58,472 bases of DNA from Pseudomonadota bacterium (GCA_031419835.1 JANOLP010000066.1:1-58472), one strand, 5' to 3'. Counted from the stretch's first letter, positions 26,220 through 46,128 are shown. Numbers and translations: made by a program. Notes: generated by a model not told the origin, from the sequence alone.

Positions 26220-26960
26220 ATGTCTGACGCTGCGATTTATTTTTCAAGTATAACGAAACGCTACGGTACGGCCGTCGCGCTCGATCGTTTTTCTCTGCGG
26301 ATTGCGGAAGGGGAATGTATTGCCCTTGCCGGCGTGAATGGCGCGGGGAAAACGACCTTGCTGAAATGTTTGCTAGATTTGCTTGCGCTGGATAGCGGCG
26401 CGATTGAAATTTTTGGCGTGAGTCATACCGACACTATCGCGCGCTCACCCGTTGCCTTTCTCCCCGAACGATTTGTCCCGCCCTATTATTTAACCGGGCG
26501 GGATTTCCTCACTTATATGGCCAAACTCGATGGCGGCGCGTTCGACGAAGCGCTCGTCATCGATCGATTTCGCGCGCTCGATCTGGATATTAATGCGCTG
26601 GACAAGCCGGTTCGATCCTTGTCAAAAGGCATGACGCAAAAATTGGGGCTTGCAGCCTGTTTGTTGAGCAACAAGCGCCTGCTTATTCTGGACGAGCCAT
26701 TGAGCGGGCTCGATCCGCGCGCGCGTGCCCGCGTTAAAGCGCAAATTATGGAACTCAAGCGCGACGGCAAAACCATTTTCTTTACCTCCCACGCCTTGGC
26801 CGACATCGAAGAGTTGGCGGACACCATGGCCGTTTTGCACAACAGCCAATTGAAATTTCATGGTACTCCCGGCGCGCTAAGGGCGAAGTATTCCGAGGCC
26901 GACGCGATCGATCTGGAAACGGCCTTTCTACGCTGCATCGAGGAGCCCGCGCTGGAATAA
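26220..26960 (+). CDS. ABC transporter ATP-binding protein of the pilus locus (Myxococcus PilH-like)
   Basis: GVNGAGKTT, FLPE, LSKGMTQK, LDEPLSGLDP, TSH; first gene of the pilus operon. Confidence 0.85.
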   Translation: MSDAAIYFSSITKRYGTAVALDRFSLRIAEGECIALAGVNGAGKTTLLKCLLDLLALDSGAIEIFGVSHTDTIARSPVAFLPERFVPPYYLTGRDFLTYMAKLDGGAFDEALVIDRFRALDLDINALDKPVRSLSKGMTQKLGLAACLLSNKRLLILDEPLSGLDPRARARVKAQIMELKRDGKTIFFTSHALADIEELADTMAVLHNSQLKFHGTPGALRAKYSEADAIDLETAFLRCIEEPALE

Positions 26961-26966
26961 GACATC

Positions 26967-28394
26967 ATGAGCGATATTAAACCGCGCTTGCTGCTGGTGG
27001 ACGACGATCCACTAATTTCCGACACCCTCAATTTTGTGTTGAGCCGTGATTTTGACGTGCACGTGGCCGGTTCCCGTGCTGAAGCGATCGGTTGGTTGCG
27101 AACGACTTCGGATATTCCCGATCTTGCGCTGGTCGATCTCGGCCTGCCGCCGACGCCGCAATTACCTATCGAAGGATTTCAACTAATCGCCGAATTGCTT
27201 GCCCATGCGCCAGCGATTCGTATCTTAGTGTTGTCAGGGCAAAATGAAGAATCGAATGCGCGTCGTGCGCGCGCGCTCGGCGCGGTCGATTTGGTGCCCA
27301 AGCCATGTGAACCGGAACATCTCAAGACACTGCTAAAAAATGCGCTACGACTAAATAGTGCAGATTTGAACGATGCCCGCGACGCTAAAGATGGCCCCGG
27401 CAAAATCATTGGCGAAAGTGCGCCAATTCAAAAACTTCGAAGCCAACTCGCGCTTTACGCTGGCTCGATTCATCCGGTGTTGATTGAGGGCGAATCGGGT
27501 AGCGGCAAAGAACGTGTCGCGGCGTCACTGCATCACCTAAGCCCACGTGCGCCGCAACCTTACTTCGCGTTGAATTGTGCAGCGATTTCGCCGACATTGG
27601 TCGAGCCTACGTTGTTTGGCTACAGCAAAGGATCGTTTACCGGCGCGGTCGGTGCAAAGTCTGGTTATTTCGAAGACGCCGGCTCGGGCACATTATTTCT
27701 CGACGAAATTGGCGAATTGCCGATCGAGTTGCAGGCAAAATTATTGCGTGTGCTTGAGAATGGCGAGTTTCAGCGCGTCGGCGAGACGCAGACGCGAGTG
27801 AGTAAAGCACGCGTCATCGCCGCAACCAATCGCGATCTACGCAAAGAAATTAAAGCCGGGCGTTTCCGCGCGGATTTGTACCATCGCCTGAGCGTCTTTA
27901 GCATTAGCGTGCCGCCGCTGCGCGAGTTAGGAAATGATCGCGTTCTGTTGTTGGATCATTTCCGCAAATTATTTGCGCGCCAGCATACAAGCGTGCCGTT
28001 CTCGCTGAGCGCCGAGGCGTTGGTTCGATGGCTACGTTACGACTTTCCCGGCAACGTGCGCGAGCTGAAAAATATCGTCATTCGGTTGTCGGCGAAATAC
28101 GCCGGCCATGAGTTGGAGTCGGAGGAGATCGAGGCGGAATTCGATTTAGAATCCGACACCGAGCGCGCCCAAAGCAACGAGCCGCAGTCGCTGTTGGAAT
28201 CGGCCAAACGCCGCTTGCAGAAAGAAAAGAACTTCAACTTAGACGACACGCTGCGCGAGACCGAACAAGCATTCGTAGAAGCCGCGCTGGCGCTGGCCCA
28301 CGGCAATGTCAGCAACGCGGCGAAATTGCTTGGCATCAACCGAACCACGCTGTATAGCCGCATGGATGTCTTTGGAAAGGCGGTGTCAAAATGA
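26967..28394 (+). CDS. Sigma54-dependent response regulator (receiver, AAA+, Fis HTH)
   Basis: LLVDDD, DLGLPP, GESGSGKE, GSFTGA, LFLDEIGEL, FPGNVREL, AAKLLGINRTTLY. Confidence 0.95.
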   Translation: MSDIKPRLLLVDDDPLISDTLNFVLSRDFDVHVAGSRAEAIGWLRTTSDIPDLALVDLGLPPTPQLPIEGFQLIAELLAHAPAIRILVLSGQNEESNARRARALGAVDLVPKPCEPEHLKTLLKNALRLNSADLNDARDAKDGPGKIIGESAPIQKLRSQLALYAGSIHPVLIEGESGSGKERVAASLHHLSPRAPQPYFALNCAAISPTLVEPTLFGYSKGSFTGAVGAKSGYFEDAGSGTLFLDEIGELPIELQAKLLRVLENGEFQRVGETQTRVSKARVIAATNRDLRKEIKAGRFRADLYHRLSVFSISVPPLRELGNDRVLLLDHFRKLFARQHTSVPFSLSAEALVRWLRYDFPGNVRELKNIVIRLSAKYAGHELESEEIEAEFDLESDTERAQSNEPQSLLESAKRRLQKEKNFNLDDTLRETEQAFVEAALALAHGNVSNAAKLLGINRTTLYSRMDVFGKAVSK

Positions 28395-29341
28395 TGTATC
28401 TCGAACATTTTGGTTTAGCGCAAGCGCCGTTCAAGATCACGCCGCATACAGAATTTTTTTTCTCGGGCGCCAATCGCGGCGCGACGCTCGACGCGTTGAT
28501 TTATGCGATTCGCGCCGGCGAAGGCTTGGTAAAAGTTACCGGCGAAGTGGGCGCAGGCAAAACCATGCTTTGCCGGGTTTTAATCGAGAAATTACCCGCT
28601 AACGTCGAGACGATTTACCTCGCAATTCCGAGCCTGACACGCGACGAAATCTTACAAGCCATTGCTGCAGATTTAAAGCTGAAAACCAAAACGCTTAACA
28701 CCGCCGGCGTTCTGGAAAAAATTCAAGCAAACCTGATCAAGCTTCATGGACAGGGCCGCCAAGTGGTGGTGTTGATCGACGAAGCACATGCAATGCCGCT
28801 AGAAACGCTGGAAGAATTGCGCTTGTTATCGAACCTGGAAACCAATCGCGATAAGCTTTTACAGATCGTGCTGTTTGGTCAGCCGGAACTCGATCAACAT
28901 TTGGCGAAGCCGCACATGCGCCAAGTAAAAGAGCGCATCACTCATAGTTTTTTTCTGCGTCCGATGCCAAAGAAAGATATCGGCGACTATCTCAATTTTC
29001 GTTTGCGCGCAGCGGGCTATCACGGCCCGGACGTATTCACTGAGCGCTGTATCTCGATGATCACATCGGTATCCGAAGGGCTGACCCGCCGCATCAATAT
29101 CTTGGCCGATAAAACCTTGCTCGCGGCCTATGCCGATGGCACCTACACGGTCGAGCCGCGCCACGTTACTGCGGCAATTGAAGACAGCGATTTCAGCCGT
29201 CCGCGCTGGTGGTCGCGGGCGTTGGCGTGGGTGCTCGGTGGTAGCGTTGCGGCGGCGGCCTTGGCGTTTTCGGTCTGGGCTATTTCGCCGCTGCATGACA
29301 CCCCACCACTTGAGCAGACCGCCGCGAAAACGGCACGATAA
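28391..29341 (+). CDS. mshM: ExeA/MshM-family AAA ATPase
   Basis: MYLEHFGL...PF.ITP, GEVGAGKT, IDEAH, LFGQPEL; C-terminal TM. Confidence 0.85.
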   Translation: MMYLEHFGLAQAPFKITPHTEFFFSGANRGATLDALIYAIRAGEGLVKVTGEVGAGKTMLCRVLIEKLPANVETIYLAIPSLTRDEILQAIAADLKLKTKTLNTAGVLEKIQANLIKLHGQGRQVVVLIDEAHAMPLETLEELRLLSNLETNRDKLLQIVLFGQPELDQHLAKPHMRQVKERITHSFFLRPMPKKDIGDYLNFRLRAAGYHGPDVFTERCISMITSVSEGLTRRINILADKTLLAAYADGTYTVEPRHVTAAIEDSDFSRPRWWSRALAWVLGGSVAAAALAFSVWAISPLHDTPPLEQTAAKTAR

Positions 29342-29362
29342 GGCGCGCACAGCAAAATATAA

Positions 29363-29442
29363 CATGTCCTGCGCGCCAATATTGGCGCGCATCTTCAGGC
29401 ATGTATCGTTGCGAGATAGTATCCGCGGACGTTTCCAGGCAG
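29363..29442. repeat. Family 1 repeat containing a perfect 20-bp palindrome
   Basis: GCGCGCCAATATTGGCGCGC (29371-29390); minus strand reads CATGCCTGAAGA..GCGC...TATTG...CAGG like the 48 kb copy. Confidence 0.65.
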
Positions 29443-29571
29443 CTCAGCCGAAAAAGAAACGGTGCCGTTTTTTCCTAAAAAATACATTCGAATTATCTCG
29501 CAGATCATTGAAACATATTAATTTAATAGTGATATACTTCAGCTCTAAATAGTCCTGATTACTTGGGCAAT

Positions 29572-31350
29572 ATGAACATACATCGGTCGATTTTTTGGCC
29601 AGCGCTGCTAACCGGAACATTGTCCGCCTGTGGTGTCGCGCCCATCGCACCGTCGCCGACCCACATCCAAGCGGACGCCCCGCGCAGCGGCACGATTCCC
29701 GCGCCGGTCAATCAAGTTTTGCTACCGCCACCGCCACGGCCGACACCAAAGGCCGAAAAATATACCGTCGTAGTTAACAACGTAAACGTTCAAGAGTTGT
29801 TAATTTCGCTCGCGCGCGACGCGAAAGTGAATGTCGATATTTCTCCGGACATCACTGGCCGCGTCACCTTAAACGCAATCGATCAAAGCCTGCCGCAAAT
29901 ATTAAGCCGGGTCGCGAAGCAAGTGGACATGCGCTACGAACTGGAAGGCCGCACCATATTGGTCATGCGCGATTCGCCATTTCTGCGCAACTACAAAATC
30001 GACTACGTCAACATGGCGCGCGACATGACCTCGCAAGTCGCAATTTCAACGCAAATCGCGACGACTGGTTCCGCGCTGGAGGGTGGCGAAGCAGGAAATA
30101 ATTCCACCACGAGCGTGACGAATACGTCGAGGAATCGGTTTTGGGAAACGCTGATACAAAACGTAAAGGATATTCTGAAGGAAACCGACAAAGTCTTGCC
30201 GGAAGGTAGCGCGGATGTTGTAACGGAACGGCGCCTCCAGCAAACCGCAAAGGGCAATGCGGCGACTTCCAGCGGAAAGAAAACTGCTAAGGGAATTGAA
30301 CCATTTGGCGGAATTTATAAGACCGAAAATGAGGGCGAAATCGAAGGTGCGGAAACGACGACAACGCGGCGCGTCACCTATCGCGAAGCGGCCTCCGTAA
30401 TCGCCAATGCCGAAACCGGCATCATCAGTATTCGTGCGACATCGCGCCAGCATGAAAAAATTCAGGAATTTCTCGATGCCGTAGTGGGTTCCGCGCGGCG
30501 CCAGGTACTGATCGAGGCAACGGTTGTTGAAGTGTTGCTCAATGAAAATTATCAGGCCGGCGTCGATTGGAGTCGGATCGCCAATGGCGGGAACGGCGTC
30601 AGCTTTAATCAAAATCTGGCGGCGGGACGGCTAGGGCAGGCACCGAATTTCATTATTGGCTATGCCAACGCGGCAGCGCGTTTCGGCGGAAATATCGCAG
30701 CATCAATTCGTTTGCTTGATTCTTTTGGTACGACGCGCGTGCTGTCGAGCCCGAAATTGATGGTTCTCAATAATCAAACCGCAATGCTGAAAGTTGTCGA
30801 TAATGTGGTGTATTTCAGCATCACCGCGTCCGTCACTGCGACTACACAAGGCGTGTCGGAAAAAACTTTCAGCACCACCGCGCATTCGGTGCCGGTCGGT
30901 TTTGTGATGAGCGTGCAGCCGCAGATCAGCGATACCGATAGCGTGCTCATCAACGTGCGGCCAACCATTTCGCGCATCACCAGTTTCGTTAACGATCCCA
31001 ATCCCGATCTCGCGACTGCCGGCGTGATTAGCCGTGTGCCGCAAATTCAAACCCGCGAAATGGAATCGATGCTGAAAATCTCCAACGGCCAAATCGCCGT
31101 GCTCGGCGGCTTGATGCAAGACAGCGTGCAGAAAAAACGCGATGGATTGCCCGGTGTTTCGCGAATCCCGATTGCTGGGGATGCGTTTAGTTTTCGCGAC
31201 GATGCAACGAGGAAAACTGAACTGGTGATTTTTCTGCGGCCGATCGTGGTGCATGATGCAAGTATCGATGGTGATCTGCGCAGCTACCGCGCGGCCTTGC
31301 CGAACAATGATTTTCTGCGCCGCACGCCGTCGCGACCGACGCCGCGATGA
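29572..31350 (+). CDS. mshL: Lipoprotein secretin, MshL-like
   Basis: Lipobox LSAC, STN region, QVLIEATVVEV.L, GVDW, VLSSPKL, GGLMQD, ELVIFLRP. Confidence 0.9.
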   Translation: MNIHRSIFWPALLTGTLSACGVAPIAPSPTHIQADAPRSGTIPAPVNQVLLPPPPRPTPKAEKYTVVVNNVNVQELLISLARDAKVNVDISPDITGRVTLNAIDQSLPQILSRVAKQVDMRYELEGRTILVMRDSPFLRNYKIDYVNMARDMTSQVAISTQIATTGSALEGGEAGNNSTTSVTNTSRNRFWETLIQNVKDILKETDKVLPEGSADVVTERRLQQTAKGNAATSSGKKTAKGIEPFGGIYKTENEGEIEGAETTTTRRVTYREAASVIANAETGIISIRATSRQHEKIQEFLDAVVGSARRQVLIEATVVEVLLNENYQAGVDWSRIANGGNGVSFNQNLAAGRLGQAPNFIIGYANAAARFGGNIAASIRLLDSFGTTRVLSSPKLMVLNNQTAMLKVVDNVVYFSITASVTATTQGVSEKTFSTTAHSVPVGFVMSVQPQISDTDSVLINVRPTISRITSFVNDPNPDLATAGVISRVPQIQTREMESMLKISNGQIAVLGGLMQDSVQKKRDGLPGVSRIPIAGDAFSFRDDATRKTELVIFLRPIVVHDASIDGDLRSYRAALPNNDFLRRTPSRPTPR

Positions 31351-32789
31351 GCCTGTTAATCGATGCGTTAAAACGCGCGGAACGGGCCAAGAATGGCCAA
31401 TCGGAACCCGCGCTTGATGCGCGCAACACAATCGAACGAGCCGTCGATAGCGCGACGACGTCGCTCGATTGGTCCCTTACGGAGCCGTCAGTTGATCCCG
31501 TCATCGGCACAGAAACAACGGTAGTAGCCGAACCCTCCGCGCGAACCGAGCCGAAATTTGCAGAACCGGTAGAAAACGTCCCGCCGCGCGAACCCGTTGT
31601 TTCGACTCCAGCGCCAGCCACTGTTACGGCAAAATCGTGGGCCGCGACTAAATCAGATCAAGCGATCAGGGCTCAGGAGCGCGAAGCGGCGCAAACATTG
31701 TTCGACGCAAAGCGCCCTGCTGCACGTAGTCGCGCCGGTATGCTCGCGCTGCTCGGATTGGCCGCATTGCTTTTGGCCGGCGGTGGGTTCTATGTTTGGT
31801 ATAGCTTCGCGTTTCCGCCCAGCCCGGTTTATCCGTCCGTTCAAGCGCGCCCCGCCGCGCCGCAACCCGCAAGAACAGTGGAAATTGCGCCGCCGCCAAA
31901 ACCAGCAGAGCCGACGCAGGCTGTTGAGACGCCTCCGATTAACACTAAAGTTGCAGAAGCAGCGTCGGCTTCCTCGTCCAATTTAGCCGTCGAAGCGCCT
32001 CCCGTTTCTGAATCGGTTGATGCCGAGATGCCGCAAGGTCCACGGCAAAAGCCGCAGCGCAAGTCCCTTCAAAGCAACGCAACTGCAGCATCAGCGAGCG
32101 ATGTTTCTTCTGAGGAAATCGTCAAACGTGAAATCAATCAAGCCCGGCGCAGCCAATTAACCAAACGCAGCAAAACCACCTCCGACAATGCTGCGATCAA
32201 CGTCGGCAGGAACGCTGAAAATGGTTTCGATGCCGACATTGCGCTTGCGTACAATTCTCTGTTATCGGGCAATCGCGCCGAAGCTAAGCGGCTTTACAGC
32301 ATCGCAGCGGAGCGCGATCCATTCAATACCGACGCCCTGCTCGGCCTCGCCACCATCGCCGGTAACCAAGGCGACATGAACAGCGCCGAGCGCTACTATC
32401 GGCGAACCTTAGAACTCGATCCGCAGAACGCAGCGGCGATTGCCGGCTTATCGTCAATTCGTCAACCTGGCGGCCCGAGCGAAAGTCAGTTGAAATTCGA
32501 GCTTGCCCGCGCCCCGGATTCCGCGCCATTGCAATTCGCGCTGGGCAATCAATTCGCCAATCAAGGTCGCTGGGATGAAGCGCAACAAGCCTATTTCGAC
32601 GCCTTCAGCGCCGACGCAGGCAACGCCGACTATGCCTACAATTTGGCGGTCAGCCTCGATCAATTGAATCAATCGAAGCAAGCGGTTATCTATTATAAAA
32701 AAGCGCAAGAACTTGCGAAGGTTCACGGTTCGCGCTTTCGTTCATCCGACATCAACGCACGCCTGAACGAGCTCAGGCAAGCGCAGTAA
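31347..32789 (+). CDS. TPR protein with Pro-rich linker, MshN-like
   Basis: MSLLIDALKRAE N-terminus, single TM, Pro/Ala/Ser linker, C-terminal TPRs (FALGN, AYNLAVSLD). Confidence 0.8.
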   Translation: MSLLIDALKRAERAKNGQSEPALDARNTIERAVDSATTSLDWSLTEPSVDPVIGTETTVVAEPSARTEPKFAEPVENVPPREPVVSTPAPATVTAKSWAATKSDQAIRAQEREAAQTLFDAKRPAARSRAGMLALLGLAALLLAGGGFYVWYSFAFPPSPVYPSVQARPAAPQPARTVEIAPPPKPAEPTQAVETPPINTKVAEAASASSSNLAVEAPPVSESVDAEMPQGPRQKPQRKSLQSNATAASASDVSSEEIVKREINQARRSQLTKRSKTTSDNAAINVGRNAENGFDADIALAYNSLLSGNRAEAKRLYSIAAERDPFNTDALLGLATIAGNQGDMNSAERYYRRTLELDPQNAAAIAGLSSIRQPGGPSESQLKFELARAPDSAPLQFALGNQFANQGRWDEAQQAYFDAFSADAGNADYAYNLAVSLDQLNQSKQAVIYYKKAQELAKVHGSRFRSSDINARLNELRQAQ

Positions 32790-32799
32790 CGCGATCACC

Positions 32800-34533: not shown

Positions 34534-34537
34534 CGCC

Positions 34538-35740: not shown

Positions 35741-35817
35741 ATGCCCGCAGACGCAATACGGATGCGCCTCAGCAGGCATGCCCTGCCACGATCAAGCACC
35801 CATGCGGCTCTTGCGCC
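35741..35817. repeat. Family 1 repeat, two units
   Basis: Reverse complement AGCCGCATGGGTGCT...GGCATGCCTGCTGAGGCGCATCCGTATTGC aligns with the 21 kb copy. Confidence 0.65.
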
Positions 35818-38000: not shown

Positions 38001-38326
38001 GAGGGAATCGCGCGCTTAAGATTATCGCTTTGTTAGTCATGTTGTCTGGGTTCGCGCCACAGACCAGTGCAGACGAACTTGGCCGATTATTTTTCAGTGC
38101 CGATGAACGCCGCGCACTAAATCAAAAGCGATCGACTCCTTCGCAAGATTCGCCGCGAGAATCCGTACCAAAACCCGTTGCGAACTTGGAGCCGGCCGAG
38201 TCGGTTCAGTTAGCGCCACCGAAGATCACGGGAAGAGTCGCTCGCAGTAGCGGGAATAATACGGTGTGGGTCAATGAAACGCCGAATTACCTTCGCAATT
38301 CCCCAGCACGACGGTTTCGAGACTGA
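37997..38326 (+). CDS. Small exported pilus protein (MshK/PilP-position)
   Basis: GTG start overlapping the upstream stop, signal peptide, LGRLFFS..ER..L, ITG.V.RS.G..TVWVN. Confidence 0.6.
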   Translation: MRGNRALKIIALLVMLSGFAPQTSADELGRLFFSADERRALNQKRSTPSQDSPRESVPKPVANLEPAESVQLAPPKITGRVARSSGNNTVWVNETPNYLRNSPARRFRD

Positions 38327-38341
38327 GCGCCGCCGCATATC

Positions 38342-39754
38342 GTGTACAAAAATGGTGAATTGCCTACTAAGCAAAATGGCCTGGCTCTACTAATCTTTGT
38401 TGTTGTACTGGCCTTAGCTGCAATTGGAATAGTGGTAAGTGGATTGTCAACTAACGCGGCAAGAGTGGGGCGCCACAATGTCACCGCCGCCGCACTGGCT
38501 AAGGCCAAGGAAGCGCTCATCGCCTACGCAGTCACCTATTCTGATACGCACTCAGATGTCCCCGGCTATCTTCCGTGCGCAGATAACGGCACATTCGAGG
38601 GTAGCAGTGCAAGTAACTGTGGGCCGAAGAATGTGAGCAAGCTCGGTCGCCTGCCGTGGCGCGAGCTGGGGATTGAGACTCTACGGGATTCGAGCGGCGA
38701 GTGTTTGTGGTACGCCGTATCCGGAACATTCAAGAAATTACCTCAAACGGACCTGATGAATTGGGACAACAACGGTTTGCTTGAAGTCATAGCCGAAGAT
38801 GGTGTAACGCTTTTGGCCGGATCAAAACCGGAAAATCGCGCGGTCGCCGCGGTAATCGCGCCGGGATCTGCCTTAGGAAGTCAGAACCGGGCGAAGGTAG
38901 CGAGCGCCGCTGAATGTGGCGGGAACTACGTGGGGTCGAACTATCTCGAGTCAAGCAAAGGCGTAAATAATTCGCTGCTGTCGTCCGTCGCGAATAACAT
39001 TAGCAGACTCATTACGGGACTTGCATCGGAGAATTTCAACGACCGAATGATTTTCATAACGCCGGAGGAAATATTTGAACCGATTCGCAAACGCAAGGAT
39101 GTACGCGCGCGGCTAGAAGCCTTAACTCGAACCATTGGCGAGTGCTTGGGGAAATATGGGGAATTTAACGGAACGCCTATCGCTATAGCGGATCATCGGC
39201 TACCGTGGCCGGCGCTGGTAAACCTCGCAAGTTTCAATGCGAATAGCAGTTATGACGATACCGCCGCGGCGAGCAGGAAATCAGGTCGGTTGCCGTTTGT
39301 TGTCAAAACGTCGAAAGCGGCGACGTCAAATCAGATGTCTGGCAATAATCTGTTAAGCGATGTGGGATTAAGTATATGCCCTTCGTGGACACCCGACGAC
39401 GCGACATGGTATCGAAACTGGAAAGACCATTTTTTCTATTACTTAGGCGGTAGTTTTGCGCCCACCTCGCCGTCTCCCACGGCGGTACCCTGCGTGTCGT
39501 GCCTTTCGGTGGAGGGTAGCGGAAGGTATGCGGCTGTCGTATTGTTTGCCTCGGAGAAAATGGCGGGTCAATCGCGCAATTCCATCGCCGAGAAAGGTTT
39601 GATCGAAAATTACTTGGAGGGCCGAAATGCAACGAGTCATCCGAATCTAAGCGGGACGAGTAATCTTGAAAAATCACCTTCGACAAATGACTATCTGGTT
39701 TGCTTAGAATTTGATTCCATATCGAATGCGGCGCGCGTTTTTCCTTGCCCGTGA
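38342..39754 (+). CDS. Large Cys-rich minor pilin (PilX/GspK-type leader, no Glu5)
   Basis: KQNG|LALLIFVVVL leader, AL.KAKEALIAYA, GYLPC, GRLPW.ELG. Confidence 0.75.
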   Translation: MYKNGELPTKQNGLALLIFVVVLALAAIGIVVSGLSTNAARVGRHNVTAAALAKAKEALIAYAVTYSDTHSDVPGYLPCADNGTFEGSSASNCGPKNVSKLGRLPWRELGIETLRDSSGECLWYAVSGTFKKLPQTDLMNWDNNGLLEVIAEDGVTLLAGSKPENRAVAAVIAPGSALGSQNRAKVASAAECGGNYVGSNYLESSKGVNNSLLSSVANNISRLITGLASENFNDRMIFITPEEIFEPIRKRKDVRARLEALTRTIGECLGKYGEFNGTPIAIADHRLPWPALVNLASFNANSSYDDTAAASRKSGRLPFVVKTSKAATSNQMSGNNLLSDVGLSICPSWTPDDATWYRNWKDHFFYYLGGSFAPTSPSPTAVPCVSCLSVEGSGRYAAVVLFASEKMAGQSRNSIAEKGLIENYLEGRNATSHPNLSGTSNLEKSPSTNDYLVCLEFDSISNAARVFPCP

Positions 39755-39773
39755 CTAGTAATGCCCGACCATA

Positions 39774-40637
39774 ATGCTCACCATGCATAGACTTCCATTC
39801 CGGCGCCATCGGTCGTTGCAAGTCGGTTTTACCCTGATTGAGCTTGCGATAGTCTTGGTCATTCTCGGCTTGGTTTTGGGGGGGCTGGTGGTTCCGCTCG
39901 CTACGCAAGTTCAATCGCGTAAGGTCAATGAAACGGAAGCAATAATTGGTGAAATTAAGGAATCGCTTTACGGATATGCGATAGCAAACGGTCGACTACC
40001 CTGCCCGGCGACGATTGCGGCCAATGGGATGGAGAATCGTCGAAACGATGATGCCGGAATTGGTCCAATAGATGCCCAAACAGACGGCTGCCGAGGTGGA
40101 AGTTATTCTGGTTTACTTCCTTGGGCAACGCTAGGCGTACCCGAAATGGATGCCTGGGGAAATCGCTTTAGGTATCGCGTCACTAATGAGTTTACAAGAG
40201 CCAATGGCGACGCAACGGCGATTGGTTTCTGCGTAAGCCCTGGGCCCGTTGTGCCCGGCACCGATCCAAACGCCTGCACTCTAGAATTGATGGATGCCGG
40301 CGATCTAATAGTCGAAACCCGCGATCCCACGACAAAAACAAAAAGGAATTTATCCACTCAAGTGCCCGCAGCGGTTGTTTCTTTCGGACGCAATGGACAT
40401 GGCGCCACGAACAATCAAGGCATCGTTTTGCCCGACCCACCAGCGGCAAATTTAGATGAGAATCAAAACACAAATGCTGCATCGATTCGCTTTTTAAGCC
40501 GTACCGCAACGGATGAACAGGCCGGATGCAGTGACAGCGCCGCAGGGCAACCATTTTGTGAGTTTGATGACATTGTTTCGTGGATCCCGACTTCTGTACT
40601 CTTTAATCGCTTACTTGCTGCCGGTCGTTTGCCCTAA
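39774..40637 (+). CDS. Minor pilin with prepilin N-terminal cleavage/methylation motif
   Basis: G|FTLIELAIVLVILG, GRLPCPA, GLLPWATLG, DAWG. Confidence 0.9.
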   Translation: MLTMHRLPFRRHRSLQVGFTLIELAIVLVILGLVLGGLVVPLATQVQSRKVNETEAIIGEIKESLYGYAIANGRLPCPATIAANGMENRRNDDAGIGPIDAQTDGCRGGSYSGLLPWATLGVPEMDAWGNRFRYRVTNEFTRANGDATAIGFCVSPGPVVPGTDPNACTLELMDAGDLIVETRDPTTKTKRNLSTQVPAAVVSFGRNGHGATNNQGIVLPDPPAANLDENQNTNAASIRFLSRTATDEQAGCSDSAAGQPFCEFDDIVSWIPTSVLFNRLLAAGRLP

Positions 40638-40667
40638 GCGTCGCATCGCCACAAGCCGCACCAAATC

Positions 40668-40722
40668 TGCCTCACAGCAGGGCATGGCCGAAACGGCGCA
40701 GCAATATTGGCTCAGGGCGGTG
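40668..40722. repeat. Family 1 repeat, degenerate copy
   Basis: GGCATGGCCGAAACGGCGCAGCAATATTGGCTCAGG resembles the 29.4 kb and 48.2 kb copies. Confidence 0.4.
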
Positions 40723-40732
40723 CCGCCGAGAA

Positions 40733-42409
40733 TCAACCCCGCGTCGACAGCGAAAAGCAAACCGCGCCATCTTGATTAAATTCTAGCGCCAATCTAAATT
40801 CCGCACTTAGCGCCTGCCGATAGGCTTGATAAAGGCCAATGCCGGTACCCTGTTCAGTGCTAACGGGTTGGTGGAATAGTTTTGCAACGATATCCGATTT
40901 AATGGCGCTGCCGCGATCGCACACCAATAGTTTGATATGTTCATGGGTATCGATAGTGAGGCGGATTGCGATTTCCGGTTCGGTGATGCGTTTGCGGCGC
41001 GCATTTTCCAACAGGTTTTCGGCGACGCTATCGAATAAGTTTTTTGGCACTTGAACGTCGCCTGGTCCGGATGCTTCGAATTCAATGTTGCGGCCTTCGT
41101 AGCGGGCTTTAAGATTATCCAACCATTCAACGGCGCTGATCATCATCCCGACCGACTGTTCTTTCGGCGCACGCAGGCTTTCAAGTGTGAGCTGCAGGCG
41201 TTTGGTGAGCGGTGGGAGTTGGCGCTGAATTAATTTAGCGTAACTATCCATTTGATCGCTTTTCAAATTTTCGCCGGCAGAGGCAAGCGAGAACAGCGAC
41301 TGCAGAAGGTTTTTGATGTCGTGAGTTAATCGTGCGCCGGTTTCGTGGACGGCTTGAATGTAGGCATTTTGCTTGAGCAATTGTTCGCGTTGTTTCGCTT
41401 CGTAAAACGCGCCGAGCAACTGCGTCAGTAGGCGCAAGTGCAAAATGATCGCCGGACTAAGTCGAATGCGTGTGTAGAGCTGAATGTTCAATTCGTGTGT
41501 CAAAAAACTGGCTTCTTGATTGCCGGGTTTCCCGATCTCGCCGGAACTGTGGGGCGATCGCCACGCGACACCGACTATCCATGGCAAACGGGCGAGTTGA
41601 TCGGCTGCAAAACGCAAAAATTCATCGGGATCGTCGTGTTTTTCCGCGCCTTCGGCAAGCTGTTGTAGCCAGGTTTCGAACGGTAACCCGAGGCTGAGAA
41701 GGTATCGTGAGAAAAAAGTTTGTAATCCCGAATACCCGCCCGAGGGATTCCATAGAACACCCAAGAGCAGCAACGCTAGGCCGACGCCCAACGTGGTGAA
41801 GAGCAGAGCAAGATAGTAGTTGCCGGCTTGTTTGGTGAAAGCGAGGCTCGCCAATACCAGCACACTAACGAGCAGAAAAAATAGCAGGCCATAGACAAAA
41901 TCGACGACGCGGCCCGCATCGACTTCGTCGCTTTCCAATGGTAATAGCGACATCACCACCAACAATAGAGGTAAGCCAAAACGCACCGCATGCTCGAGAT
42001 TCGGCGGCAATTCGTGACCGGCCACCAAAACCGGCACGACCCAAAACAACAACAGCATCAACAAATAGCCGAGCGCAAATTGATAAAACATGCGAAGCCG
42101 TGGCATTTGCGCCGTGAATACGCGCCCGCCAATGGTGCCGATGAGGCCGATCAGCCACAGCGTGACGAGCCAGGCGTTACTCGCGAGAAATAACAACGTG
42201 CCGCAAATGACGATCGCGAGGATGACGGCGGGGCTTAATTTGCTATCGCGGCGAAACAGCGGTTGCCACAAAAGAAACATGCCGAAGTGCGAAACCAGTA
42301 GCGCGCGCGACGCGAAACCTGACAAGCCGCCAGCGAGCGCGAGATGCAAGGTCACCAGCATCAGCAGCACGGACCAACGGCGGTTAAAAAGCAGCCGAGA
42401 TATCTTCAT
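40733..42409 (-). CDS. Multi-TM sensor histidine kinase
   Basis: Multi-pass membrane N-terminus, H-box LTHDIKNLL, N-box ENLLENA, D.G and GTGIGLY boxes. Confidence 0.9.
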   Translation of the reverse strand: MKISRLLFNRRWSVLLMLVTLHLALAGGLSGFASRALLVSHFGMFLLWQPLFRRDSKLSPAVILAIVICGTLLFLASNAWLVTLWLIGLIGTIGGRVFTAQMPRLRMFYQFALGYLLMLLLFWVVPVLVAGHELPPNLEHAVRFGLPLLLVVMSLLPLESDEVDAGRVVDFVYGLLFFLLVSVLVLASLAFTKQAGNYYLALLFTTLGVGLALLLLGVLWNPSGGYSGLQTFFSRYLLSLGLPFETWLQQLAEGAEKHDDPDEFLRFAADQLARLPWIVGVAWRSPHSSGEIGKPGNQEASFLTHELNIQLYTRIRLSPAIILHLRLLTQLLGAFYEAKQREQLLKQNAYIQAVHETGARLTHDIKNLLQSLFSLASAGENLKSDQMDSYAKLIQRQLPPLTKRLQLTLESLRAPKEQSVGMMISAVEWLDNLKARYEGRNIEFEASGPGDVQVPKNLFDSVAENLLENARRKRITEPEIAIRLTIDTHEHIKLLVCDRGSAIKSDIVAKLFHQPVSTEQGTGIGLYQAYRQALSAEFRLALEFNQDGAVCFSLSTRG

Positions 42410-42420
42410 TTTGACGGATG

Positions 42421-42509
42421 GGCTGAACGCCGCATGGATACTATATCTACAGGCATACTAGCTGGAAAATCAATAACTATGGGCATCGTAGCCGCGGTCA
42501 ATATTGGGT
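42421..42509. repeat. Family 1 repeat
   Basis: GCCGCATGGATACTATATCTACAGGCAT matches units of the 21 kb copy. Confidence 0.55.
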
Positions 42510-42614
42510 TTTAGACAAATGAGGTGGCGCAAAGGAATGATATTTAAATAGAGTAATTTGCGGGCAAGCGTTCATCCACTATATCATCGGAGTTAGCGAA
42601 AACGATAGCGGAAA

Positions 42615-43385
42615 ATGCGGCAGAATTTCTTGACCATCGCGTACTACACCTTGCTGGAAGCGGCGCGTAATCGCTTGCTGTATTTGATCGCGCTGATCCT
42701 CGCCGTCGCCTTGGCGTTCACGTTGTTTCTAAAGCAAGTCGCCATCACGGAAAGTGGCGATATTCAAATCGCTTTCCTCGCCGCTTTGTTTCGACTAGCG
42801 GCGGTGTTCATTGCCGCGGGGTTCGTAATTGTCAGTCAAGTTCGCGAAGCCAACGATAAAGTCATGGAGTTATTGTTGACGAGGGATTTATCGCGTGCAC
42901 AATATTTATGCGGAAAGTTGCTTGGCTATCTTGGCGTGGCATTGGTGCTGGCTGTTTTATTTACGTTGCCTTTGTGCTTTTTTGCTGCGCCAAGTCGGGC
43001 GGCGCTTTGGGGACTATCGCTATTCTTCGAACTCGCCATAGTAGCGGCGTTGAGCCTGTTCTGCGTGCTGACATTTAATCAAGTGGTCGGCTCGCTTGCT
43101 GCGGTCGTGGGCTTTTACGCGCTATCGCGTTCGATGGCGGCATTGCAGTTGATCGGCTCGAGTCGCGTCGGCGATGGAAATTTGCTACTCGATCGAATCG
43201 CCAGCACAACCCTCGAAGCCATTGCGTTTTTTCTGCCGCGGTTGGATTTGTTTACACAGAGCGGTTGGTTGTTGACCAATCGTCAAGGCAACGTCGATAT
43301 GGCGTGGGTAATCGCACAAAGTGTCATCTATGTTGGGCTCTTGGGCGTTGCCGCGCTGTTCGATTTGAAGCGGAAGAATTTTTGA
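42615..43385 (+). CDS. ABC-2-type permease of the pilus locus (Myxococcus PilI-like)
   Basis: IA.YTLLEA.RNR, RE.NDK..ELLL..DLSR.QYL.GKLLG, LPRLD.F, FD.KRKNF. Confidence 0.85.
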   Translation: MRQNFLTIAYYTLLEAARNRLLYLIALILAVALAFTLFLKQVAITESGDIQIAFLAALFRLAAVFIAAGFVIVSQVREANDKVMELLLTRDLSRAQYLCGKLLGYLGVALVLAVLFTLPLCFFAAPSRAALWGLSLFFELAIVAALSLFCVLTFNQVVGSLAAVVGFYALSRSMAALQLIGSSRVGDGNLLLDRIASTTLEAIAFFLPRLDLFTQSGWLLTNRQGNVDMAWVIAQSVIYVGLLGVAALFDLKRKNF

Positions 43386-43386
43386 G

Positions 43387-44091
43387 GTGAAGTCGCGACC
43401 GCTAAGTACTGTTTCTTGGCGCCTGACTAGCGCACTGTTGCTTGCCCTCGGGCTACAATTTTATATTCACGCGCAAACGCCACGCGCGCAGGCCCGGGCA
43501 ATCGATTTAATGGCCCTACCAAGCGTGCCATTGTTGCGCGTAGCGAGTTTGGACGAGCCCATCGCGCTGTCGAAAATGCTCATGCTCTATTTGCAAGCCT
43601 TCGACAATCAGCCGGGTATCAGCATTCCGTTTCGCGAGTTGGATTATGATCGTGTCGAGCATTGGCTCAGCAAAATTTTAACACTCGATCCGGCGAGCCA
43701 ATATCCGCTATTAAGTGCGAGTCGCCTTTATGGCGAAGTGCCGGTCGCCGCGAAGCAGCGCCAGATGCTGAATTTCGTCTATCGTGCATTTCTGCAGGAT
43801 CCGAACAAGCGTTGGCCCTGGCTTGCCCATGGCGTATTGATTGCGAAACACCAGTTGAAGGACCTGCCGCTCGCCGCGACTTACGCCACAGCGCTGCGCG
43901 ACCATGCAACCAGCAAAGACGTGCCTCATTGGGCGCAGCAAATGGAACTATTTATCCGCGAAGATATGAATGAATTGGACAGTGCGAAAGTGTTGCTTGG
44001 CGGTCTGTTACAAAGTGGACGAATCAACGATCCAAAAGAATGGCATTTTTTGAACGAAAAGTTACGAGAACTTGAACGAAAGACCGAATGA
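43387..44091 (+). CDS. Membrane-anchored TPR-like accessory protein (PilG-position partner of the ABC permease)
   Basis: N-terminal TM, L..I.TLDP...Y, DP.KRW.W helical repeat pattern; 1 nt after the permease stop. Confidence 0.6.
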   Translation: MKSRPLSTVSWRLTSALLLALGLQFYIHAQTPRAQARAIDLMALPSVPLLRVASLDEPIALSKMLMLYLQAFDNQPGISIPFRELDYDRVEHWLSKILTLDPASQYPLLSASRLYGEVPVAAKQRQMLNFVYRAFLQDPNKRWPWLAHGVLIAKHQLKDLPLAATYATALRDHATSKDVPHWAQQMELFIREDMNELDSAKVLLGGLLQSGRINDPKEWHFLNEKLRELERKTE

Positions 44092-45233
44092 AAATTACCG
44101 ACGTTAAAACCTACGCGTTACACACCCCGCTTACCCAACCCTTCGCGTTTTCCCAGGGCTGGGTACATAAACGCTCTGCCACCATCGTCGAAATCAGCAC
44201 CGACGCTGGCATTACTGGCTGGGGTGAGGCATTCAATCAAGGCCTTGAGCCCCCGCAAATTTCTGCCGCGACCATCGATCACGCACTGAAGCCGCTGATT
44301 CTCGGTGCCGATCCGCTGGAAACGGAAGTGCTGTGGCATCGCATGTATCACCAAACGCGCGACTACGGTCGCAAAGGTTCCGTCGTCGCGGCGATCAGCG
44401 CCGTGGACATCGCATTGTGGGATATCGCCGGCAAACATTTCGGCGTGCCGATTGCGACGCTGCTCGGCGGATTTTTCCGCAAAACCGTTGCGGCTTATGC
44501 CACCGGGTTTTATCGGATCAGCGGCCAGGGCGAAGCCACGCGCCTGGGCGGCGAGGCGATTGCTCACTACGAGGCCGGTTTTCGCGCGATGAAAGTGAAA
44601 CTCGGTTACGGCCTCGAAGACGATTTGAAAGTGATGACCGAAATCAAACGGGCATTGGGTTCGCGCGAAGTCACACTGATGGTCGACACCAACCACGGCT
44701 ACGGCTTGAGCGACGCATTGCGCCTAGGCAAAGGTTTGGAGCAATATAACTTGCGTTGGTACGAAGAACCGGTCGCGCCGGAAGATTACGAAGGTTATCG
44801 GATATTGCGGCAAAAGCTCGATATGCCGATTGCCGGCGGCGAAAACGAGCATAGTCTCTATGGCTTTCGCGAATTGATCGGCCGTGGTTGCGTCGATGTC
44901 GCGCAGCCGGATATGGGTTCGGCCGGTGGATTTACCGCCTGTCGCCATATTACGGCTTTGGCGCAAAGCCATGGCGTGCAGGTGAATCCTCATGTTTGGG
45001 GATCGGGCATTGCGCAGGCGGCGTCGCTGCAATTGATCGCCGCGCTACCGGTGAGCCATCACGCCGTGTTTCCGACCGAGCCCATTCTGGAATACGACAC
45101 CTCGTCCCACCCCTTCCGCCAGGATTTGATTTCGCCCGCCGTCGTCCAGCACGACGGAATGGTTTCGATTCCTCAAACACCGGGCCTTGGCATCGACGTC
45201 GATCGAGACATCCTGAAATGCTACAGTTGCTAA
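44088..45233 (+). CDS. Mandelate racemase/muconate lactonizing enzyme family protein (galactarolactone cycloisomerase-like)
   Basis: GITGWGE, SAVDIALWDI.GK, MKVK, metal ligands in VDTN/EEP/GENE, NPHVW, PGLG. Confidence 0.9.
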   Translation: MKITDVKTYALHTPLTQPFAFSQGWVHKRSATIVEISTDAGITGWGEAFNQGLEPPQISAATIDHALKPLILGADPLETEVLWHRMYHQTRDYGRKGSVVAAISAVDIALWDIAGKHFGVPIATLLGGFFRKTVAAYATGFYRISGQGEATRLGGEAIAHYEAGFRAMKVKLGYGLEDDLKVMTEIKRALGSREVTLMVDTNHGYGLSDALRLGKGLEQYNLRWYEEPVAPEDYEGYRILRQKLDMPIAGGENEHSLYGFRELIGRGCVDVAQPDMGSAGGFTACRHITALAQSHGVQVNPHVWGSGIAQAASLQLIAALPVSHHAVFPTEPILEYDTSSHPFRQDLISPAVVQHDGMVSIPQTPGLGIDVDRDILKCYSC

Positions 45234-45259
45234 ATTGCAACCCAACAATTGTGAAGATT

Positions 45260-45295
45260 TGTTGTTTTTTCGACAGCCTTGTCGGCACGCCAACA
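45260..45295. promoter_or_regulatory. Tandem enhancer (UAS) palindromes for a sigma54 activator
   Basis: TGTTG-N6-CGACA (45260-45275) and TGTCG-N6-CAACA (45280-45295), 20 bp apart, ~100-130 bp upstream of the -24 box. Confidence 0.75.
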
Positions 45296-45390
45296 TCACG
45301 TATCGCCACGTGAAGTCAAAAAACGTGTTTTGAAGGCGGGATTTCAACGTGACGAAGTGATTTAGGAAACTTACTCCGGTCAAAATCGAT

Positions 45391-45406
45391 TGGCACAAGA
45401 ATTGCT
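45391..45406 (+). promoter_or_regulatory. Sigma54 -24/-12 promoter of the major pilin
   Basis: TGGCAC-AAGAA-TTGCT, exact consensus spacing. Confidence 0.9.
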
Positions 45407-45447
45407 TTTGATTGGTTATCTTAATGTTCGTGCAGGGCGAGGGTCCC

Positions 45448-46128
45448 ATGAAACGCAATCAATCCGGCTTTACCTTAGTTGAAATCGCTATCGTACTGGT
45501 CATCATCGGCCTGCTGCTCGGCGGCATTCTGAAGGGCCAAGAATTAGTTCAAAACGCGCGGGTTCGAAACCTTGCCGATCAGCAAAATGCGGTCGCCGCG
45601 GCTTATTTCGCGTTTCAGGATCGGTATCGAGCTTTGCCGGGGGATTATGCCGCCGCAAATACCAATATTCCTAATGTGGTTAGTGCGCCCACATGCGCGA
45701 CGCCCTGCGTACAGGGGAATTCACAGATTACTTTAAACGAGCGGGTTTTCGCCTGGCATCATTTGACGAACGCCGGATTCATATCGTGCCCATTTTGCGC
45801 GAATGATCCCACGCCCAATCCCGCAGCACCTAGTGGCGCCAATAGCCTAACTAATGCGTACAACGGTTTCATGACCATAGAGTTTGACGCAAATTATCAA
45901 GTGCTTGCCGCCGCGCCTGCTGCGTTACCCGTTAACAATCTTAAATCCGGCGGGCAAGTGCCATCCAATATCCTGGCAGAAGTCGATCGAAAATTGGATG
46001 ACGGTAACGCCGGCACTGGAAAATTCAGAAATATCACGGTTCCGGCCGCTGCTGCGGCGTGCGTAAATGTAGCCGACTGGCAATCCCAAACCCCGGTGCC
46101 AGATTGTCAGGCTGTTAATTTGTTCTGA
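45448..46128 (+). CDS. Probable major type IV pilin
   Basis: MKRNQSG|FTLVEIAIVLVIIGLLLGG, ALPGD, D.KLDDG; own sigma54 promoter. Confidence 0.9.
   Translation: MKRNQSGFTLVEIAIVLVIIGLLLGGILKGQELVQNARVRNLADQQNAVAAAYFAFQDRYRALPGDYAAANTNIPNVVSAPTCATPCVQGNSQITLNERVFAWHHLTNAGFISCPFCANDPTPNPAAPSGANSLTNAYNGFMTIEFDANYQVLAAAPAALPVNNLKSGGQVPSNILAEVDRKLDDGNAGTGKFRNITVPAAAAACVNVADWQSQTPVPDCQAVNLF

Follow-up and report, generated by a model that had tools for sequence, protein, structure and literature searches.

We analysed a 58,472-nt stretch of DNA from a Pseudomonadota bacterium (GCA_031419835.1, JANOLP010000066.1:1-58472), hereafter called the window, and describe the locus between its positions 26220 and 46128. 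This region is a real, self-contained type IV filament gene cluster in which the assembly genes stand together with a sigma54-type two-component pair and the genes of an ATP-binding cassette (ABC) transporter. Genes were called from a listing of open reading frames (ORFs) combined with Pfam and NCBIfam scans of the window's proteins, and every gene that a first-pass annotation had placed in this region was found there, at or close to its expected position. In the list, names beginning with Msh refer to the mannose-sensitive haemagglutinin (MSH) class, and TPR stands for tetratricopeptide repeat.

26220-26960, plus strand: ABC ATPase at the head of the locus, DrrA/NodI/GldA-like (Pfam ABC_tran 82.5 bits)
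26967-28394, plus strand: sigma54-dependent response regulator with receiver, AAA+ and Fis-type helix-turn-helix (HTH) domains (Response_reg 61.7, Sigma54_activat 208.2, HTH_8 45.3 bits)
28391-29341, plus strand: MshM/ExeA-like AAA ATPase (AAA_22 101.8 bits; C-terminal hydrophobic segment 277-295)
29572-31350 (ORF from 29563), plus strand: MshL-type lipoprotein secretin (Pfam Secretin 118.9 bits)
31347-32789, plus strand: membrane-anchored TPR protein in the MshN position (several TPR families of Pfam, residues 300-460; hydrophobic segment 132-150)
32800-34533, plus strand: MshE-type extension ATPase (T2SSE 427.6, MshEN 62.4 bits)
34538-35740, plus strand: inner-membrane platform protein of the GspF/PilC/MshG family (T2SSF 162.9 bits, two stretches)
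35827-37410, plus strand: PilM/GspL-like protein of 527 residues (by predicted fold; no Pfam or NCBIfam match)
37407-38000, plus strand: bitopic protein of 197 residues, putatively in the PilO/GspM/MshJ position (N-terminal hydrophobic segment 11-29)
37970-38326, plus strand: small exported protein, putatively in the PilP/MshK position (by position; no family match)
38342-39754, plus strand: large pilin-like protein of 470 residues, putatively in a GspK/PilX-like position (hydrophobic segment 14-32, no Glu5)
39774-40637, plus strand: minor pilin of 287 residues (N_methyl 22.0 bits, cut-off 21.2)
40733-42409, minus strand: histidine kinase with PilS-like layout (HATPase_c 30.5 bits; six hydrophobic segments)
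42615-43385, plus strand: ABC-2 type permease (ABC2_membrane_3, ABC2_membrane and ABC2_membrane_2, each below cut-off)
43387-44091, plus strand: accessory protein of 234 residues from an unannotated family (N-terminal helix or signal peptide and an all-alpha TPR-like domain in the model)
44088-45233, plus strand: enolase-superfamily enzyme of the mandelate racemase/muconate lactonizing enzyme type (MR_MLE_C 209.5, MR_MLE_N 81.3 bits)
45391-45405, plus strand: sigma54-type -24/-12 element TGGCACAAGAATTGC (exact TGGCAC-N5-TTGC match)
45448-46128, plus strand: major pilin (N_methyl 33.2 bits; 7-residue leader, cleavage motif G/FTLVE)

The plus-strand genes from the ABC ATPase through the minor pilin (26220-40637) are closely packed. 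A scan of 26050-46049 for promoter and terminator consensus sequences gave numbers at the level of chance, with 17 promoter-like matches against 14.8 expected and 26 terminator-like matches against 31.3. The fit of the secretin to the NCBIfam MshL model (TIGR02519) is borderline, with 250.1 bits for the protein and 252.0 bits in a six-frame genome search at a cut-off of 250.2; it is still the best-fitting model, and GspD (158.3, cut-off 351.35) and PilQ (99.1, cut-off 284.35) were much worse fits. The solved structures closest to the secretin are GspD chains (75 bits). Its signal ends with LSAC/G, a lipobox that was read on the DNA, and the true start is likely 29572 rather than 29563. The MshM-like protein scored 211.8 bits against TIGR03015, under the cut-off of 324.5, and in all related loci the TPR protein is likewise encoded between secretin and ATPase. 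The MshE-type ATPase has a predicted N-terminal domain for binding of cyclic di-GMP (c-di-GMP): it passed the cut-offs of NF053729, the MshE-related c-di-GMP motif (62.6 bits, cut-off 38), and of Pfam MshEN (62.4 bits, cut-off 23.1), and it missed those of PilB (524.7, cut-off 675.65) and GspE (517.1, cut-off 630.25). The platform protein likewise remained under the cut-off of the GspF model (302.3, cut-off 424).

Three genes 3' of the platform gene had been taken for alignment-type genes, which holds by fold for the first (35827-37410) and is suggested for the other two by position and topology only. An AlphaFold2 model of the 527-residue protein, built on an alignment of 14 homologues, reached a predicted local distance difference test (pLDDT) score of 77.2 and comprises an N-terminal actin-like domain, one long membrane helix and a C-terminal periplasmic alpha/beta domain. 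Foldseek matched this model to PilM of P. aeruginosa (5eou_B, E 9.3e-12), EpsL (1yf5, 6.7e-9) and GspL (4pht_Y, 3.7e-7), and Thermus PilM-PilN (2ych) was matched as well. Because of this layout and these matches we regard the protein as a PilM/GspL-type alignment protein fused to a periplasmic part, an identity verified by its predicted fold. Pfam searches up to E 10 returned no credible match for the 527-, 197- and 470-residue proteins or the product of 37970-38326, and profile searches of the PDB with the 527- and 197-residue proteins gave nothing usable. For the 197-residue protein the best Pfam match had an E-value of 0.011, the single NCBIfam match was far under its cut-off and hhalign against the PilM-like protein gave a probability of 3%. 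The gene of this protein is kept 3' of the PilM-like gene in related loci, and the product of 37970-38326 has a signal-like start and homologues in part of them. Judged from position and topology, the two small proteins may have PilO- and PilP-like roles.

The filament cluster of the window contains three pilin-like genes in total. Two of them had been called minor pilins, which applies to the gene at 39774-40637 with its N_methyl motif (20.9 bits against TIGR02532, cut-off 16.3; mature N-terminus FTLIELAIVLVILG), while the product of 38342-39754 has a pilin-like hydrophobic N-terminus only and lacks Glu5. This 470-residue protein had no family match in Pfam or NCBIfam; the nearest Pfam-bearing Atlas clusters carry N_methyl (score 0.94), which we treat as a lead only. 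As a separate observation, the segment 38275-40745 with these two genes shows no detectable DNA similarity to the closest related locus, L010 (loci, genomes and contigs are labelled L, G and C here), and the flanks align at 87-89%. Within the genus, identity is approximately 32% for the 287-residue pilin; of the 470-residue protein, one locus has a fragment with 28% identity, and the other two gave no match. The two genes look like a hypervariable minor-pilin cassette.

The major pilin gene most likely starts at ATG 45448 (MKRNQSG/FTLVE) and encodes 219 mature residues. The first-pass annotation had chosen TTG 45412, a start that we abandoned as the -24/-12 element at 45391-45405 ends only 7 nt before it. 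The pilin scored 23.7 bits against the GspG model (cut-off 88.85), and only its N-terminal helix matches solved pilins. In an alignment of 20 homologues the first ~60 residues are near-invariant, and a DxKxDDG motif is found at the C-terminal end.

The exact TGGCAC-N5-TTGC match lies 43 nt 5' of ATG 45448 and is the sole sigma54-type site in 26000-46200. With up to one mismatch the pattern had 2 matches in the whole window against 5.85 expected, a count that alone is not above chance. The weight of the element therefore comes from its position and conservation and not from the count. With a relaxed pattern, whose background was 0.025 per 200 nt over 5.4 Mb of fetched sequence, 42 of the 76 records of related loci had an element 50-120 nt 5' of the start of the pilin, 12 of them exact, and in 5 of 12 loci from other orders it stands 72-103 nt before the mature pilin N-terminus. 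Six hydrophobic segments lie within residues 14-218 of the kinase, which has the H-box THDIKNLL and no periplasmic sensor domain; its gene is convergent with the pilin-like genes and divergent from the ABC permease gene across a shared region of 206 nt. The best NCBIfam model of the response regulator is PrsR (351.2 bits, cut-off 502.6), and the kinase matches PrsK weakly (42.2 bits, cut-off 300). A regulatory set of the XrtA/PEP-CTERM type was considered and rejected, as PrsR, PrsK and the TIGR03015 match of the MshM-like protein all remain under their cut-offs. In their layout, kinase, activator and pilin promoter together resemble the PilS/PilR system that controls pilA, in which membrane pilin is sensed by PilS.

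For the ABC ATPase the best NCBIfam match was the drrA subfamily, with 138 bits under cut-off, and a PADLOC search gave matches for this protein only, all of them to generic P-loop proteins. The ABC-2 permease has five to six hydrophobic segments. Searches of Pfam, NCBIfam, PADLOC and PDB profiles returned no match for the accessory protein. Its AlphaFold2 model (pLDDT 85.2) consists of one N-terminal helix followed by eleven helices of TPR-like repeat. Foldseek found nothing at E<=0.001, the best matches being PilW (2vq2, 6.9e-3) and PilF (2fi7, 4.5e-2), and a wide VIA search returned many TPR-like chains with Z 9-11, which is under the specific level for helical repeats. Since these structure matches are generic, we claim for the accessory protein a TPR-like fold only and no pilotin relationship. 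The family is large, with 687 representative clusters at E<=1e-3 in a library of 1.84 billion proteins. Ten of these clusters were looked up and three had named members, called hypothetical or tetratricopeptide repeat proteins, from a Gammaproteobacteria bacterium metagenome-assembled genome (MAG), Candidatus Venteria and a Magnetococcales MAG. A predicted complex of permease, accessory protein and pilin, with the pilin as partner, scored 0.78, 0.78 and 0.79, and 0.00 and 0.00 when the pilin was replaced; with the permease swapped for an unrelated protein it still scored 0.81, so that this prediction speaks neither for nor against binding.

The linkage of these genes was followed in three surveys. 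In the order of the window, 40 relatives and the window's own genome were searched, and the accessory protein was detected in 24 and the PilM-like protein in 26 of the 41 genomes, the two genes lying 5-8 kb apart where they share one contig. Nineteen loci were compared, 16 found via the PilM-like protein together with L008-L010; L007 was too short and left out. Eleven of them (L008, L009, L010, L012, L013, L017, L018, L021, L023, L024, L026) have the permease, the accessory protein or both along with the rest of the set, mostly in the same order; like the window's locus, most of them stand between mlaF and kefC/kdsD. One of the eleven lacks the kinase and one gave no pilin gene, and the ABC ATPase gene lies 5' of the regulator gene wherever the 5' end was covered. 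Six further loci (L014, L015, L016, L019, L020, L025) consist of the pilus core without permease or accessory gene, with no accessory match elsewhere in the respective genomes, and two (L011, L022) are cut or split over contigs. In L010 (contig C8 of G003) in-frame stops and truncations affect the genes for ATPase, platform, PilM-like protein, permease, accessory protein and pilin, and 12.3 kb of alignment with the window has 68 gaps; the cause may be decay of the genes or indel errors in a MAG from long reads.

A wider scan with the accessory profile covered 415 relatives among species-representative genomes, of which the best 80 loci were fetched with flanks; the counts use only loci with enough flanking DNA, and a few of the 80 coincide with the earlier ones. 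The carriers are labelled Burkholderiales, Undibacterium (U. danionis CCM 8677 among them), Herminiimonas, Noviherbaspirillum, Gallionellaceae and Sulfuricella. The permease gene is directly 5' of the accessory gene in all 72 loci (72/72), and the kinase gene lies on the opposite strand 5' of the permease in 46/60. A pilin gene follows within 2.6 kb 3' of the accessory gene in 50/57 loci, and the PilM-like and platform genes are found within 10 kb upstream in 40/46. In four loci (L064, L078, L084, L099, including Sulfuricella and Sulfuricellaceae MAGs) a block of kinase, permease, accessory and pilin genes precedes kefC, and kdsD where covered. As these four have no PilM-like or platform gene within 10 kb upstream, the regulatory/ABC/pilin block can stand apart from the assembly genes.

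Beyond the order, 300 genomes sampled evenly from the class were searched. The accessory profile matched 39 of them, including the window's own, and the MshL model was over its cut-off in 113. In 15 genomes the accessory gene lies 10.6-20 kb from an MshL-type secretin gene on the same contig and strand, and 14 of these loci were fetched. All 14 have the order regulator, MshM, secretin, TPR protein, MshE, platform, PilM-like protein, then pilin-like genes, antisense kinase, permease, accessory protein and pilin, with single genes undetected in some. A scan with a profile of the distant accessory proteins named as carriers outside Burkholderiales Methylohalomonas lacus HMT 1 and MAGs labelled Chromatiales, Ectothiorhodospiraceae, Halofilum, Methylococcales and Hydrogenophilales, and it named Duganella isolates as well. 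The same-order and 300-genome tallies include four unpublished genomes (G009, G038, G079, G181), on which we make no separate claim. Taken together, the surveys bear out the expectation that the ABC and sigma54 two-component genes co-occur with the pilus genes elsewhere, since they travel together in same-order, wider-scan and other-order loci alike. The first-pass annotation had further proposed a poorly characterised, betaproteobacterial type IV filament subtype. A distinct lineage with the ABC genes and the sigma54 pair was indeed found; the restriction was not, as the same architecture occurs in 14 genomes outside the window's order, in other orders of the class.

The surveys also changed the picture of the transporter. 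It had been described as split, which is true in the window, where the ATPase gene heads the locus. In 8 of the 14 other-order loci and in the Undibacterium loci the ATPase gene is directly 3' of the pilin gene, which in the eight gives the order permease, accessory, pilin, ATPase. Orthologues of the window's ATPase in the other-order loci are 43-54% identical, and cross-matches to MlaF and LptB reach just 24-29%. Because the identity to the post-pilin ATPases is in a range like that of the other components, the head ATPase is the same gene relocated, and the split is a local rearrangement, seen in some lineages including that of the window. In the commoner layout the transporter operon encloses the pilin gene. 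The enolase-superfamily gene, present as predicted, overlaps the accessory stop codon by 4 nt and was found only in L008-L010 and 9/80 wider-scan loci; it is a lineage-specific insertion between accessory and pilin genes, confined to near relatives. Models of acid-sugar dehydratases were all under their cut-offs with this protein.

The pilins co-vary with the transporter. All complete pilins encoded beside the permease or accessory gene have the conserved N-terminus and the DxKxDDG motif, 9/9 in the set found via the PilM-like protein (window included) and 11/11 in the other-order set. The pilins of the ABC-less loci L014, L015 and L016 are without the motif, and in the ABC-less loci L019, L020 and L025 no such pilin was found within the fetched stretch. 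In two loci (L021 at 19278, L023 at 727) a second pilin with related N-terminus and DxKxDDG follows the family pilin, and these pairs look like tandem paralogues.

How the locus relates to known systems was examined by gene order, identity, trees and model scores. According to a passage of Denise et al. 2019, mshA, mshE, mshG and mshL, together with mshM, are the mandatory MSH genes of TFFscan. All five have counterparts in the window, in one locus, with AAA_22 (101.8 bits), T2SSF (162.9) and N_methyl (33.2) being generic families. The locus resembles the MSHA system of Vibrio cholerae and the MSH class in its MshL-fitting secretin, its MshM/ExeA-like ATPase, the TPR protein between secretin and ATPase, an ATPase with MshEN and c-di-GMP motif and a GspF-family platform, and in having neither retraction ATPase nor peptidase in the locus. 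It differs in the order MshM-secretin instead of secretin-MshM, in alignment genes that come after the platform, in having only three pilin-like genes, and in the addition of the sigma54 pair and an ABC-2 transporter with TPR-like accessory protein. Among the 30 best MshL-model matches in the class sample, 29 have the order secretin-MshM. Ten loci of this canonical order, fetched with flanks, read secretin, MshM, gap, MshE, platform, and contained no match to the PilM-like protein, the small and pilin-like proteins, the sigma54 two-component pair, the ABC transporter with its accessory protein, or the pilin. This agrees with the claim that Vibrio msh loci lack a dedicated ABC transporter and sigma54 pair.

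Identities to the window point in the same direction. Canonical-order loci are 27-46% identical to the window's components and loci of the window's type 40-65%, with MshE at 35-40% against 60-65% (same-type loci from other orders), the platform at 27-33% against 40-52%, MshM at 42-46% against 50-58% and the secretin at about 30% against 41-53%. In a secretin tree of 64 rows (IQ-TREE quick search, rooted on the secretin of the genome's own type II secretion system (T2SS) cluster), a branch with a Shimodaira-Hasegawa-like approximate likelihood ratio test (SH-aLRT) support of 88 separates the 33 rows of the window's type, and 29 of the 30 top MshL-model rows form their own clade (99); one row, L110, has a long branch. 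In the ATPase tree (44 rows, PilT-like outgroups, L010 left out for its broken ATPase frame) 32 rows of the window's type group at 87 and eight canonical-order rows at 100, the latter joining the genome's GspE and the ATPase of contig C208 weakly (81). The label of the window's type in this tree includes the six ABC-less loci, which stand at four places inside the clade. Both trees thus place the locus outside the canonical MSH clade, with moderate support and few outgroups. Assignment to the T2SS is not indicated either, as the GspD, GspE, GspF and GspG models are all under their cut-offs, nor is assignment to the type IVa pili (T4aP), with the PilB and PilQ models under cut-off and no PilT-family gene in the window. 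The components therefore do not fall cleanly inside canonical MSH or T2SS, in line with the earlier annotation, and we conclude from these comparisons that the window's type is probably a sister lineage of MSH-like systems outside the canonical clade. Both types can be present in one genome, as in G250 (L160, L250) and G253 (L155, L244), in the latter ~23 kb apart on one contig.

The closest known analogue is the pilS-pilR-pilA-pilG-pilH-pilI region of Myxococcus xanthus. Both loci combine a sigma54 two-component pair with a pilin gene adjoining a three-gene ABC module, which in both cases consists of an ATPase, an ABC-2 type permease of ~250 residues and a small accessory protein of unknown family; the window's locus type thus has the PilGHI-type arrangement of these genes near the major pilin gene and the regulators. 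In Myxococcus, however, the host machine is a T4aP with PilB/T/C/MNOPQ and the order of the module genes differs; the likeness is one of gene content and neighbourhood. A passage in PMC5544727 describes pilA, pilG, pilH and pilI as contiguous, with one deletion allele spanning pilA codon 7 to pilI codon 250, and reports that deletion of pilGHI abolishes S motility and exopolysaccharide production. PilG, PilH and PilI were described as essential for pilin translocation across the inner membrane in a statement of PMC3724824 that cites Wu et al. 1998, and a section of a review (PMC6060248) notes that PilGHI-like matches are widespread and that there are no further experimental data. In Geobacter sulfurreducens the pil/xap cluster, sigma54-regulated, has an ABC ATPase gene a few genes from pilC, pilS and the pilin gene: as given in part of PMC5585712, xapD (GSU1501) encodes an ABC ATPase a few locus tags after pilC (GSU1493) and pilS (GSU1494), and is described there as a sugar ABC transporter. 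This likeness is one by description, and it differs in that xap is regarded as exporting sugar for a polysaccharide with an anchoring function and in that the host system is a T4aP. With PilS/PilR-pilA of P. aeruginosa the locus shares, by gene content, a six-segment kinase without periplasmic sensor, an NtrC-type activator and a -24/-12 promoter before the pilin; the best NCBIfam models of the window's regulator and kinase are PrsR and PrsK, under cut-off; the comparison is one of layout. In open-access literature and bioRxiv we found no paper on this arrangement, and the system lists of Denise et al. 2019 may include such loci.

We consider it probable that the locus is a complete, self-regulated, MSH-related filament cluster that belongs to a distinct lineage widespread in Gammaproteobacteria (including Burkholderiales) and whose ABC module most likely acts on the pilin. 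Under this reading the six-segment membrane kinase would phosphorylate the sigma54 activator in response to a presumed signal, for which PilS-like sensing of membrane pilin is a guess, and activator and RpoN would drive the pilin promoter at 45391-45405. The prepilin would be cleaved by a single unlinked peptidase encoded on contig C176. From the roles of their families, the MshE-type ATPase, together with platform, PilM/GspL-like protein and the pair of small partner proteins, may polymerise the pilin on a primer formed by the two pilin-like proteins, and the filament would leave through the MshL-type secretin, in whose assembly the MshM-like ATPase and the TPR protein may aid. The ABC-2 transporter would be an integral, pilin-linked module and an analogue of PilGHI; its linkage was found in the surveys, and its activity is a proposal. 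It may act on this pilin family by membrane delivery or extraction, chaperoning or quality control. We favour pilin handling because ABC-adjacent pilins always carry DxKxDDG and the pilins of ABC-less loci are without it, and export of an unrelated compound is less likely. The more specific proposal that ABC-2 transporter and accessory protein are a dedicated pilin-handling machine, co-evolving with the one pilin family that is marked by the invariant N-terminus and DxKxDDG, is tentative and less likely than not.

Alternatively, the ABC-2 transporter might export a non-protein component of the envelope or matrix (polysaccharide, glycolipid or a group that modifies pilin, for example) which the filament needs or anchors, as has been proposed for the Geobacter xap genes, and adjoin the pilin gene because of co-regulation. 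The resemblance of the ATPase to drrA, NodI and GldA and of the permease to GldF or ABC2_membrane models would suit such a function, as would the sugar transporter described for xapD beside the Geobacter pil genes and the insertion of a sugar-acid-dehydratase-like enolase-superfamily gene in the operon of the window's genus. That insertion is, however, restricted to one lineage, the conserved gene set has no glycosyltransferase or polysaccharide-synthesis gene, and in many genomes the pilin gene lies between the transporter genes, with a C-terminal motif that co-varies with the module; we therefore regard this explanation as unlikely. Even less probable is a secretion system of the T2SS kind, in which a short periplasmic pseudopilus works as a piston and the ABC transporter delivers cargo or a cofactor to the periplasm. 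GspK lacks Glu5, and the large pilin-like protein shares this feature; the T2SS likeness further includes the GspL layout of the fused alignment protein with its EpsL/GspL matches, the GspF-family platform, the GspD-related secretin and the missing retraction ATPase in the locus, and a group made up of the canonical-order ATPases with GspE and the C208 ATPase of the window's genome is separated from the window's type weakly, at SH-aLRT 81. Yet the Gsp models remained under their cut-offs and MshL fits the secretin best, the locus has no GspC-like gene and only three pilin-like genes, and the host genome has a separate GspE with secretin and platform on contig C99. A mature pilin of 219 residues with its own strong predicted sigma54 promoter also fits a bulk filament subunit.

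The transporter could instead be a sensory partner of the kinase that tunes pilin transcription by flux or load sensing of the Bce type. The kinase has membrane segments only and no periplasmic domain, it is divergent from the permease over their shared 206-nt region, and the two genes adjoin in 46/60 loci. We give this idea little credence, because permease and accessory genes persist where the kinase is missing (14/60 loci), two loci (L014, L015) keep the kinase without the transporter, and Bce-type permeases are large FtsX-type proteins, unlike the ABC-2 type permease of the window. That ABC, two-component and pilus genes are simply unrelated neighbours might be entertained as ABC ATPases and sigma54 regulators are common genes and other ABC systems flank the locus, mla upstream and lptB downstream. 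Many families and orders nevertheless keep the linkage, which persists where the ATPase gene has been rearranged, and the synteny counts contradict a chance association, which makes it highly improbable.

Several observations weigh against the reading of a conserved machine with a pilin-directed ABC module. Single-protein queries detected no accessory protein anywhere in six core-bearing genomes (G011, G013, G018, G031, G037, G039), and since the six ABC-less loci stand at four places inside the clade, the module is dispensable for some versions of the machine. In 7/57 loci with permease and accessory genes no recognisable pilin was found within 2.6 kb downstream, with at least 3.3 kb fetched, and 14/60 such loci are without the kinase. 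The pattern used did not detect a sigma54 element in 34/76 loci. The 14 other-order loci were selected via the accessory protein and are thus uninformative on the frequency of the module, the co-variation of pilin and ABC genes rests on few independent lineages, and the accessory fold, as modelled, is a generic TPR-like one. The clade supports of 87 and 88 are moderate and come from quick-search SH-aLRT with few outgroups. What we call canonical MSH, and the names of the MshN, MshJ and MshK positions, rest on the NCBIfam MshL model and on what we take to be the Vibrio order mshL-M-N-E-G.

All components of the locus are of known kinds, and the Myxococcus analogue has been known since the 1990s; the value of this locus type lies in how broadly the ABC-pilin linkage is conserved, in its natural variants and in its cultured carriers. 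Few surface machines of bacteria are as widespread as type IV filaments, and why some require an ABC transporter has been open since the work on Myxococcus pilGHI in 1998. If the ABC module handles pilin, the PilGHI requirement of Myxococcus would generalise to a widespread fourth filament module beside motor, alignment complex and secretin. The question now has a comparative footing, with several hundred accessory clusters, natural variants with and without the module, a motif that tracks it and a pilin gene inside the operon, and cultured, harmless carriers such as Undibacterium, Duganella and Methylohalomonas make it testable. Moreover, at least two deep lineages go under the label MSH-like and can occur side by side in the same genome, a point of importance when adhesion and biofilm genes of environmental Gammaproteobacteria are annotated automatically.

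In the rest of the assembly (323 contigs, 93% complete) we searched for T2SSE and Peptidase_A24 proteins. As the first-pass annotation had stated, the window contains no PilT/PilU motor and no prepilin peptidase. The sole Peptidase_A24 match of the assembly is on contig C176 beside a PilC-like gene. The MshE gene is the sole T2SSE match on the window's contig, and four others are on C99, C208, C58 and C88: C99 has a GspE (737.9 bits, cut-off 630.25) with secretin and platform, and C58 and C88 have PilT-like ATPases. With a single unlinked peptidase and PilT encoded elsewhere, the locus must borrow the peptidase and, if its filament retracts, the motor. The match on C208 (9043-11415, minus strand; L004) is a PilB-like ATPase of 790 residues with an N-terminal extension of ~200 residues, under the PilB and GspE cut-offs and on a very long branch of the ATPase tree. 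A second MshM-like gene at C277:10411-11199 is 32% identical to the copy in the locus and is perhaps the true PEP-CTERM-associated ATPase.

The locus is flanked upstream (22073-26067) by the mla operon genes mlaF and mlaE on the minus strand and downstream (46147-56082) by a kefC-like gene (minus strand), kdsD, kdsC, lptC, lptA, lptB, rpoN, ptsN, hprK and rapZ. The rpoN gene (51840-53297) is thus 5.7 kb downstream of the pilin gene with the sigma54-type element. Among relatives, MlaF was found at the 5' flank in some order-level loci and KefC or KdsD at the 3' flank in most.

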